From Candidatus Thorarchaeota archaeon (GTDB lineage Archaea > Asgardarchaeota > Thorarchaeia > Thorarchaeales > Thorarchaeaceae), in assembly GCA_008080745.1 (NCBI GenBank), contig SHMX01000001.1:90001-122000 (forward strand): a stretch of 32,000 nucleotides of DNA, written 5' to 3'. This document shows, piece after piece, positions 24,381 through 25,965 of the stretch. The position numbers were made by a program, and so were the translations under genes. Each line of letters begins with the position of its first letter. The first letter of the stretch is position 1. The notes under the pieces were generated by a model. That model did no database searches. It was not told where the DNA came from and was given only the letters and a program-made list of their open reading frames with translations.

Positions 24381-24788
24381 TTATTCCTCAGTCTCATCTG
24401 ATTCTTCATCATCTATTTCTTCATCCTCACCCTCTGACTCCATATCTTTATCGATGTCTTCCTCTTCATCAAGATATTCTTCTTTATCTTCGACATCTAA
24501 ACCGGATGATGCTATCTTATTGATAATAGGATAGACTATAATCAATCCAATGAAGGCCAGAGCAATTATTGCCATCATTGCACCACTGGCACCAAACCAG
24601 GCCACAGGATTGACTAAAAGATCGGAAAAGGGCGACTCAAGTAATACAATTTGAAACCAAATGGGAATGGCAAAGACAAGTGGTAGACATATTAGAACCA
24701 GAATGCCAATTGAGGCAATTATCTCAGCCATATGTAGCAGAATACGTTTCACCGTGCTATCAACTGCTTTCTTCGCAATAGAGGACAT
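24381..24788 (-). CDS. Small two-TM membrane protein with an acidic tail
   Basis: Start moved to the ATG at 24788 (MSSIAKK, preceded by GGAG and a TTTTAAA box about 35 nt upstream). Two hydrophobic segments, then a D/E-rich tail. Confidence 0.65.
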   Translation of the reverse strand: MSSIAKKAVDSTVKRILLHMAEIIASIGILVLICLPLVFAIPIWFQIVLLESPFSDLLVNPVAWFGASGAMMAIIALAFIGLIIVYPIINKIASSGLDVEDKEEYLDEEEDIDKDMESEGEDEEIDDEESDETEE

Positions 24789-24822
24789 TTTTCTTCTCCA
24801 ACCGAGTGCAACATAGAACTCC

Positions 24823-24834
24823 TTTAAAACTTGC
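24823..24834 (-). promoter_or_regulatory. GCAAGTTTTAAA BRE/TATA-like element upstream of the 24788 gene
   Basis: The same 12-mer occurs on the plus strand at 25241-25252. TTTTAAA lies at archaeal promoter distance from the ATG. Confidence 0.5.
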
Positions 24835-24851
24835 TGGATAAATGAAGGTCT

Positions 24852-24948
24852 GGGGGCCAAAAATAGGAGGAATCGAATCCGCAGCGCTTGTGGAATTGGA
24901 CGTCAAATCTGAGAGAGAGGGTGTGTGTAGCGGATGATTGTGGCCCCC
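24852..24948 (-). ncRNA. Candidate structured small RNA 1 (97 nt, strand uncertain)
   Basis: Terminal 8-bp stem GGGGGCCA/TGGCCCCC and inner helix AATC-ATCCGC/GCGGAT-(TC)-GATT. Unpaired CCCTCTCTCTC and CCTCC on the minus strand. TTATAT lies 27-32 nt upstream on minus. Confidence 0.45.
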
Positions 24949-25053
24949 GTTATGATATATTATAATATAATATGATATAAGTGTATGTAATGTCAACACT
25001 GTCGTCATAATGTTTTGATAATTGATTGATGAAAAGAAGAGAGAGGAGAAGAG

Positions 25054-25136
25054 GAGCGACCCGAGGTTTTGAACGCTGGAGGAGGAGAGAGAATTGCTAC
25101 GGAATGATCATAACAAGATTAACCGTCGGGTCGTTC
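25054..25136 (-). ncRNA. Candidate structured small RNA 2 (about 83 nt)
   Basis: Terminal stem CGACCCGA/TCGGGTCG, a bulged C, then GGTT/AACC. The loop contains TTCTCTCTCCTCCTCC. TTATATA box at 25166-25160 and a downstream pyrimidine tract ending TTCTTTTC. Confidence 0.5.
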
Positions 25137-25240
25137 TGTATTATATTAGGATTAAAGATATATAATCAAATCTTCGATAGACTAAAACCCGCCAAATGAT
25201 GCGAAATTCGCAATAGTGAATAAATATGATAGAGATTATC

Positions 25241-25263
25241 GCAAGTTTTAAATGTAAACTTGC
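25241..25263 (+). promoter_or_regulatory. TATA box embedded in an 8-7-8 inverted repeat (putative operator)
   Basis: GCAAGTTT-taaatgt-AAACTTGC. TTTAAA at 25247-25252 lies about 30 nt upstream of candidate RNA 3. Confidence 0.5.
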
Positions 25264-25282
25264 AGTATACTCATTTGAATGC

Positions 25283-25472
25283 GTGTCGAGGAGCGCCAAA
25301 ACATCACAACGTGACTCTTGTCACAATTAGTGATGCTCCCTCCTGAAAAATCCTGATTGCACAAAAGGTGCACACATCCTCTCCTCCAATCGTACTAAAT
25401 AAAGTACGATTAACCTCCTCAAGCAACCAAGCGTACTATTTTTCTTGGCGCACCTCGCACCTTCACTTTTTT
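25283..25472 (+). ncRNA. Candidate structured small RNA 3 (about 180 nt plus T-tract)
   Basis: The 5' arm GTG-t-CGAGG-a-GCGCCAA pairs with the 3' arm TTGGCGC-a-CCTCG-CAC. Three internal hairpins (25302-25335, 25358-25372, 25388-25411). Linkers carry CTCCCTCCT, CATCCTCTCCTCC and AACCTCCTC. Ends CTTCACTTTTTT. Confidence 0.55.
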
Positions 25473-25542
25473 GTCACAATTCTAAAAATATTTGGGAGGA
25501 AAGAAGGGTCTCCCCCCGGTACAACTTAGTTTTTCTACACCT

Positions 25543-25965
25543 CTAACAGACATCTACTGGCTGAGGAAAAGGTGACGTTTCTATAAGGACTGACTCACAT
25601 CCAAAAGAGAATACTTCGACCATGAAAGGTGAATCTGATTCTGCAACTTTTGTCCAATTGTTCCGATCCCGCCTATAAAAACAATAATTGGTACAATTAT
25701 ATCGAATTTCAACTATTGATCTATCAGGAATAGTTTCCAGATCAGAAACAGAAAAGGTGATTCCCTCCGATTGATTTTCGCTATTCGGACGAGAAAGAAA
25801 GATTCGAAAAATATCACCATTATTTGGAAGTAGTAGCGCAACATGAGGACGACTATAAGAATCCCAATGATTAGGGATTGGCAGATTTCTGCACGCATAT
25901 GCGCCCTGAGCAGATTGGAATACCAAAAGAGTACCCTCATCGATTATCATGGTTTTATTGTACAC
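25543..25965 (-). CDS. Hypothetical protein (orphan-like)
   Basis: 140-aa ORF with ATG start and an upstream GGAG, occupying otherwise empty sequence. No recognisable motif. Confidence 0.5.
   Translation of the reverse strand: MYNKTMIIDEGTLLVFQSAQGAYACRNLPIPNHWDSYSRPHVALLLPNNGDIFRIFLSRPNSENQSEGITFSVSDLETIPDRSIVEIRYNCTNYCFYRRDRNNWTKVAESDSPFMVEVFSFGCESVLIETSPFPQPVDVC

Follow-up and report, generated by a model that had tools for sequence, protein, structure and literature searches.

The question raised by this locus is what occupies an intergenic gap of ~750 bases (24790–25543) flanked by two minus-strand genes. The gap lies in the window, i.e. the whole 32,000-nucleotide stretch of DNA analysed here (positions 90001–122000 of contig C1), which belongs to a Thorarchaeota assembly of 3.16 Mb that is 98% complete. 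Between the flanking genes 24381–24788 and 25543–25965 the longest open reading frame does not exceed 82 amino acids. The lack of a credible coding sequence over about 700 nt, noted in a preliminary description of this DNA, is further borne out by the homologues of the elements found in the gap: their lengths range from 78 to 185 nt and their indels are not multiples of three. At the level of sequence analysis it is confirmed that the gap contains three independent small non-coding RNA genes of this Asgard archaeon, designated E1, E2 and E3.

The gene order around the gap is kept across the family: Mrp-like ATPase (plus strand), membrane protein (minus), E1 (minus), E2 (minus), E3 (plus), 140-aa protein (minus) and HAD hydrolase (minus). 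The small membrane protein encoded by 24381–24788 (minus strand) possesses a long acidic, D/E-rich C-terminal tail. Its gene always follows E1 in the downstream direction and has a conserved promoter of its own, AGCAAnnTTTAAAGG. The GA-rich codons of the tail may in principle be complementary to the C/U-rich loops of the RNAs. The gene of the 140-aa protein (25543–25965, minus strand) is transcribed towards E3 and keeps its syntenic place throughout the family; the protein belongs to no Pfam family. By features its nearest entries in a protein atlas are SPRY/Neuralized-like eukaryotic clusters (score 0.91), a lead provided by a low-confidence atlas model.

The three RNAs have a common anatomy: a GC-rich terminal stem is formed from both ends and closes a large C/U-rich loop with CCUCC and CUCUC, and a T- or pyrimidine-rich tail follows. 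Three elements with GC-rich paired ends had been perceived in the preliminary description; the stems were recovered at the same positions and covary across many genera. E1 (about 24850–24951, minus strand; covariance model R3) has a terminal stem of GGGGGCCA (24948–24941) with UGGCCCCC (24860–24853), a C/U-rich loop with the core CCGCUACACACACCCUCUCUCUCAG (24933–24909) and a second CCUCC at 24870–24866. E2 (25041–25140, minus strand; model R2) consists of a stem, 25136–25123 with 25066–25053, and a pyrimidine-rich loop with the core AAUUCUCUCUCCUCCUCCAGCGUUC (25095–25071); its pyrimidine-rich tail with CUUUUC extends to about 25031. E3 (25280–25472, plus strand; model R1) is detected with 120 bits, and R1 gives no second match in the genome. 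Its terminal stem P1 (25283–25299 with 25445–25460) encloses the variable hairpin P2 (25302–25335), loop motif A CUCCCUCCUGAAAAAUCCUGAU (25336–25357), hairpin P3 (25358–25372), motif B CACAUCCUCUCCUCC (25373–25387), a lineage-specific hairpin (25388–25411) and motif C CCUCCUCAAGCAACCAAGCGUAC (25414–25436). The T6 run at 25467–25472 and the CUUUUC tail of E2 correspond to the pyrimidine/T tracts in which the second and third elements had been said to end.

Each of E1, E2 and E3 is presumably transcribed from its own TATA promoter, with expression, ends and strand predicted from the DNA. The boxes are located 22–33 nt upstream of the 5' arms. The TATA box of E1, ACACTTATAT (24975–24984, minus strand), lies 26–32 nt upstream of the 5' arm, and that of E2, ATTATATAT (25158–25166, minus strand), 22–30 nt upstream. 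The E3 promoter (25238–25253, plus strand) is formed by ATCGCAA at the BRE position (25238–25244) and the TATA box TTTTAAAT (25246–25253). These elements are conserved. ACACTTATAT precedes E1 homologues in genera g1, g5, g7, g8, g13 and g6, and in genus g9 the box is a different AT-rich sequence. TTATTATATA, GCTTAAAT or AGTTAAAAG is present at a similar upstream distance in most of the 26 aligned E2 genomes and is not evident in G009 and G013. A TATA-like hexamer is found 25–35 nt upstream of the E3 model match in 29 of 30 genomes (29–35 nt in 28 of them), compared with 2 of 30 in the antisense control, and the conserved TATA boxes of E2 and E1 occur on the minus-strand side only. The TATA-like boxes about 25–32 nt upstream of each element and the strands minus, minus and plus, both proposed in the preliminary description, proved right by the positions of these promoters.

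The palindrome TGCGAAATTCGCA (25200–25212) is situated between the divergent promoters of E2 and E3 and represents a candidate operator. It is the sole TGCGAnnnTCGCA in the genome, and upstream of E3 the palindrome TTGCGAnnnTCGCAA is recognisable, with small variants, in all 10 of the 10 aligned genomes. Several g6 genomes have a related half-site, TTCGCAAT, in front of the E2 TATA box. The ATCGCAA of the E3 promoter is a further half-site. E2 and E3 are probably co-regulated via this unique palindromic operator, and it is likely that a dedicated transcription factor acts on it.

The preliminary description had not recognised the RNA system and had asked for an Rfam scan. Rfam 15 gave no match at the locus when the whole window was scanned at the gathering score, and the interval 24600–25700 yielded chance-level matches only at E-values up to 10. 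A tRNA scan of the window found none. The SRP RNA and the RNase P RNA of the host genome sit elsewhere (G000:C2:303444–303753 and C12:4769–5102, respectively). The best match to the Y RNA family RF00019 in the genome is off the locus and reaches 17.5 bits against a cut-off of 38, and the 98%-complete genome has no match to Ro60/TROVE (PF05731), to which control genomes respond. Archaeal C/D box sRNAs are about 50–70 nt long and carry C (RUGAUGA) and D (CUGA) boxes near their ends; the sR2 match of 14.3 bits (cut-off 42) falls between the elements, and no conserved C box is seen in the alignment. CUGA occurs twice in motif A of E3. As E1, E2 and E3 are single-copy and syntenic, they are not mobile elements. 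In the literature on non-coding RNAs of Asgard archaea and Thorarchaeota and on archaeal anti-Shine-Dalgarno sRNAs nothing was found on this RNA family. The three clustered and conserved small RNA genes of Thorarchaeota are real, and we could find no earlier description of them.

Conservation of the locus was surveyed in 86 genomes of the family, belonging to 16 genera, using models R1, R2 and R3. BLAST of the region against relatives gave a 630-nt alignment with 85% identity in the sister species G001 and short conserved cores in eight other genera. Each of the RNAs occurs once per genome and always in the same syntenic slot according to the covariance models: E3 in 43 of the 86 genomes (12 of 16 genera), E2 in 66 (13 genera) and E1 in 22 (7 genera). 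An E2 homologue with the core AUUCUCUCUCCUCCUUCCAGCGUUCU and a variable GC-rich closing stem is found upstream of E3 on the opposite strand in nearly every genome, and of the 30 loci inspected at least 18 have an E1 homologue behind E2. In some genomes E2 and E3 are 700–800 nt apart and the E2 TATA box is still present. In other Asgard families no credible copy of E1, E2 or E3 was found at the sensitivity of these models; four marginal matches of the E2 model there (E 0.001–0.01) were discarded as chance, and three of them seem to be antisense inside coding sequences.

Ten aligned E3 homologues possess the BRE/TATA block ATCACAAnnCTTATAT, a 5' arm GUGUCGAGGAGGCGCC paired with the 3' arm GGCGCCUCCUCGCACC and the invariant core ACAUCCUCUCCUC..CUCAAGCAACCAAAGCGAAC. 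The shortest forms (88–104 nt; genera g6 and g8) are reduced to the terminal stem and one open loop carrying CUCCCUCCUGAAA and ACAUCCUCUCCUCCUCAAGCAACCAAGCGAAC, and the longer ones, that of the host included, have hairpins P2 and P3 plus an extra insert. E1 homologues have the promoter ACACTTATAT, a stem of GGGG with 3–5 variable pairs and the loop ACCGCUAC..CUCUCUCA..CAUCUG; E1 is 100% identical in G001, where its flanks diverge. In most genera outside that of the host a T-run follows the 3' arm of E1.

Across many genera the loops are near-invariant and the stems covary strongly, as was established after collecting the syntenic regions of relatives suggested for examination by the preliminary description. 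The E1 stem covaries in 17 genomes (GCCA/UGGC, ACC/GGU, CUCAC/GUGGG, GUCC/GGAC), its versions being GGGGGCCA/UGGCCCCC, GGGGACC/GGUCCCC, GGGGCUCAC/GUGGGCCCC and GGGGGUCC/GGACCCCC; G-U pairs are present in six genomes. The E2 stem shows a compensatory change from C-G to U-A already between the host and G001. The following counts for E3 and E2 were obtained with alignments fitted to the models and so lean towards structure, the raw MAFFT alignments pointing in the same direction: in 30 sequences of E3, 92% of cells are paired, 15 of 24 pairs have changed on both sides and doubly changed cells number 61 (19.5 ± 3.6 in shuffles, every slid control being far lower); in 26 sequences of E2, 76% of cells are paired, all 14 of 14 pairs have changed on both sides and doubly changed cells number 62 (23.2 ± 4.3 in shuffles). 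The ratio of G-U pairs to A-C mismatches is 29 to 13 in E3; in E2 it is 26 to 29, a count that does not decide the strand.

The loops are linked by their motifs. Each of the three RNAs has CCUCC and CUCUC in its predicted loop, kept from genus to genus between covarying stems, with two to four copies of such motifs per RNA. The sense strands of E1, E2 and E3 together carry six CCTCC, where ~0.4 would be expected (our estimate from the window-wide count), in agreement with the unpaired regions rich in CCUCC/CUCUC described earlier. The exact 9-mer reported as common to E2 and E3, CTCTCCTCC, is found exactly twice in the 32-kb window, at 25081–25089 (minus strand) and 25379–25387 (plus strand), against 0.24 expected from shuffles. 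With filters off, the ~43 sub-threshold matches of the E2 model include 11 E3 and 6 E1 genes, all matched over their full length and in the right orientation; these genes make up ~3.5% of the sequence searched by our estimate, and the cross-detection is far above chance. This weak detection by the E2 model implies a shared architecture and motif, so that the original term "sibling" RNAs is reasonable. The shared architecture may reflect either common descent or convergence.

In the host genome the region −15 to −9 relative to the first ATG of 1986 long open reading frames shows a sharp peak of GGAGG, GGAG and GAGG, which extends to the whole genome the earlier remark that genes here use GGAG/GAGG Shine-Dalgarno sequences. 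The 3' end of the 16S rRNA reads GAUCACCUCCU. Given this use of Shine-Dalgarno sequences, an RNA exposing CCUCC might be able to base-pair with ribosome-binding sites. From the 515F primer site, the 16S gene itself (G000:C2:590413–592382, at the contig end) runs for ~1.9 kb up to its 3' end GAUCACCUCCU, ~900 nt above the usual, which suggests an insertion or intron. Two more copies of the 16S 3'-terminal GATCACCTCCTACGCATTTT are located at G000:C9:11580 and 13491, ~1.9 kb apart and away from the C2 gene; a motif search of the assembly revealed no 23S rRNA.

The prediction of targets, proposed in the preliminary description, points for E1 to one mRNA, in this genus only. The E1 loop CGCUACACACACCCUCUCUCUC is complementary at 21 of 22 positions (BLAST E-value 5.6e-4) to GAGAGAGAGUGUGUGUGUAGCG, the 5' UTR abutting the AUG of a gene for a 378-aa winged-helix regulator (G000:C5:37833–38969, outside the window; locus L111, 37770–38969, includes the 5' UTR). 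The predicted duplex has −43 to −44.5 kcal/mol, compared with −30.9 kcal/mol for the next best of 1986 start regions, and the only other occurrence of the (GA)n(GU)n tract in the genome is antisense to E1 itself. The sister species keeps the tract GAGAGAGAGUGUGUGUGUAGCG, although the identity of its regulator protein is only 64% and the flanks are different. The regulator contains two winged-helix/AsnC-type HTH regions and is one of about four paralogues per genome. A matching 5' UTR is missing from its g5 and g7 orthologues, the E1 loops of these genera also being different, and the only long complements to the E1 loop in g5 are the E1 genes themselves. The pairing being absent there, it may be lineage-specific or fortuitous. 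Neither E2 nor E3 has an outlier target, and their loops pair with start regions only 1.2–1.6 times more often than with internal coding controls. The complement of the E3 core GAGGAGGAGAGGATG with up to two mismatches was found at no gene start of note. Pairing with 16S, SRP and RNase P RNA reaches −20 to −25 kcal/mol at best, within the ordinary range of start regions.

Base-pairing riboregulation is the reading of E1, E2 and E3 that we rank first, and we adopt it tentatively. In this mechanism the 5' and 3' ends would pair into the GC-rich stem and hold open the large, mostly single-stranded C/U-rich loop. The RNAs would be trans-acting, their loops (CCUCC, CUCUC; CAUCCUCUCCUCC in E3) pairing at or close to start codons with Shine-Dalgarno-like, purine-rich sequences, and this pairing would lower translation. 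In the genus of the host the putative target of E1 is the 5' UTR of the two-domain winged-helix regulator gene, which would be covered right up to the AUG. An anti-Shine-Dalgarno mechanism is plausible as a whole; it is partly supported for E1 and may apply to E2 and E3. The E3 loop counts against a base-pairing role: ~30 consecutive nucleotides hardly vary between genera in which the neighbouring proteins share only 40–60% identity, which exceeds the need of a 7–12-nt seed and fits a conserved protein or RNP partner better.

The serious rival is thus a role as protein-binding RNAs, sponges or RNP scaffolds, that titrate or deliver a protein with no mRNA pairing; it is also called for by the lack of an outstanding complementary target of E2 and E3 in the genome or in 16S, SRP or RNase P RNA. 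The terminal stem would then display the repeated C/U-rich motifs to a conserved RNA-binding protein, a candidate being a KH-type protein reading CCUCC-like sequences; an archaeal KH-type homologue of Dim2/Pno1 has been reported to read a CCUCC-like sequence on the 16S 3' end. Loops far more conserved than the stems, over stretches longer than a pairing seed, the two to four motifs in each RNA and the Y-RNA-like combination of paired ends, pyrimidine-rich loop and U-rich tail are all consistent with it. On the other hand, the genome has no TROVE/Ro60 gene, the partner is only hypothetical, the adjacency of any gene says little where the whole neighbour block is syntenic, and E1 has its striking antisense match to a start region. 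Weighing the outlier target of E1 against the missing outliers of E2 and E3 and the invariance of the E3 loop, we place base pairing first and a protein-binding role second, as possible but on balance unlikely. A further view is doubtful, and distinctly less probable than either: the trio may be an Asgard-specific RNP system whose closed loops display the 16S 3'-end-like CCUCC (preceded in E3 by CAU, the initiator anticodon sequence) as decoys titrating Shine-Dalgarno start regions globally or an anti-Shine-Dalgarno-reading protein. It would then control translation initiation as a master switch governed by a single dedicated operator, and its shape would make it an archaeal equivalent of the clustered eukaryotic Y RNAs with their pyrimidine loops, but lacking Ro60.

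Two explanations dispense with independent RNAs. It is highly improbable that the elements are cis-acting parts of neighbouring transcripts, such as a structured leader or attenuator of the membrane-protein gene or 3' UTR structures. E1 does lie directly upstream of gene 24381–24788 on the same strand and in conserved order, but the separate conserved promoter AGCAAnnTTTAAAGG between them means that E1 is not simply the leader of that gene, and the T-run behind its 3' arm in most other genera speaks against it too. Furthermore, E3 converges on its neighbour, and E2 precedes E1 and not a coding gene and retains its own TATA box where 700–800 nt separate it from E3. Least probable of all is conservation at the DNA level, as a replication origin or a complex regulatory region that produces no stable RNA. 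AT-rich stretches, several inverted repeats and a unique palindrome within 750 bp would suit such a region, but the arms show compensatory changes and differ among the elements, unlike repeated protein-binding boxes, and the stems of E1 and E3 contain G-U pairs. The TATA boxes occur on one strand and at a constant distance, and no orc1/cdc6 gene is present among the neighbours examined.

Several known systems resemble the RNAs in part. RsaE/RoxS and LhrC are bacterial sRNAs with C-rich loops that mask ribosome-binding sites, and sRNA41 is an archaeal sRNA of Methanosarcina mazei. Like these, E1, E2 and E3 are small RNAs predicted to be independently transcribed, with unpaired C/U-rich motifs complementary to GGAGG-type Shine-Dalgarno sequences and several similar copies, and E1 has a long match over a start region. 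The three differ from them in that sequence and structure show no homology (Rfam gave no match) and a loop of 55–150 nt is closed by one long terminal stem, whereas the motifs of the known sRNAs reside in the loops of small hairpins. Conservation extends over 25–35 nt of the loops, targets of E2 and E3 are not identifiable and the host is an Asgard archaeon. The Y RNAs of the Ro60 RNP (RF00019) are similar in size (about 80–190 nt), in the long stem of the 5' and 3' ends, in the large pyrimidine-rich internal loop and U-rich 3' tail, and in the clustering of paralogues at one locus with an own promoter each; without a TROVE/Ro60 gene and a Y_RNA model match at the locus, this likeness is one of shape only. 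With the CsrB/RsmZ sponges the RNAs share a short motif repeated in unpaired RNA, multiple paralogous genes and loops more conserved than stems, but the motif is CCUCC/CUCUC here and GGA there, and it is present in far fewer copies per RNA. A CsrA-like partner is not known from archaea.

Conserved RNA genes, their promoters, a candidate operator and a predicted mRNA target of E1 together provide a testable entry to post-transcriptional control in Thorarchaeota. Models R1–R3 can serve to annotate genomes of this group and to search sediment metatranscriptomes for the transcripts. Should the loops turn out to target Shine-Dalgarno sequences, or a protein reading the 16S 3' end, they would represent a new mode of tuning archaeal translation initiation.
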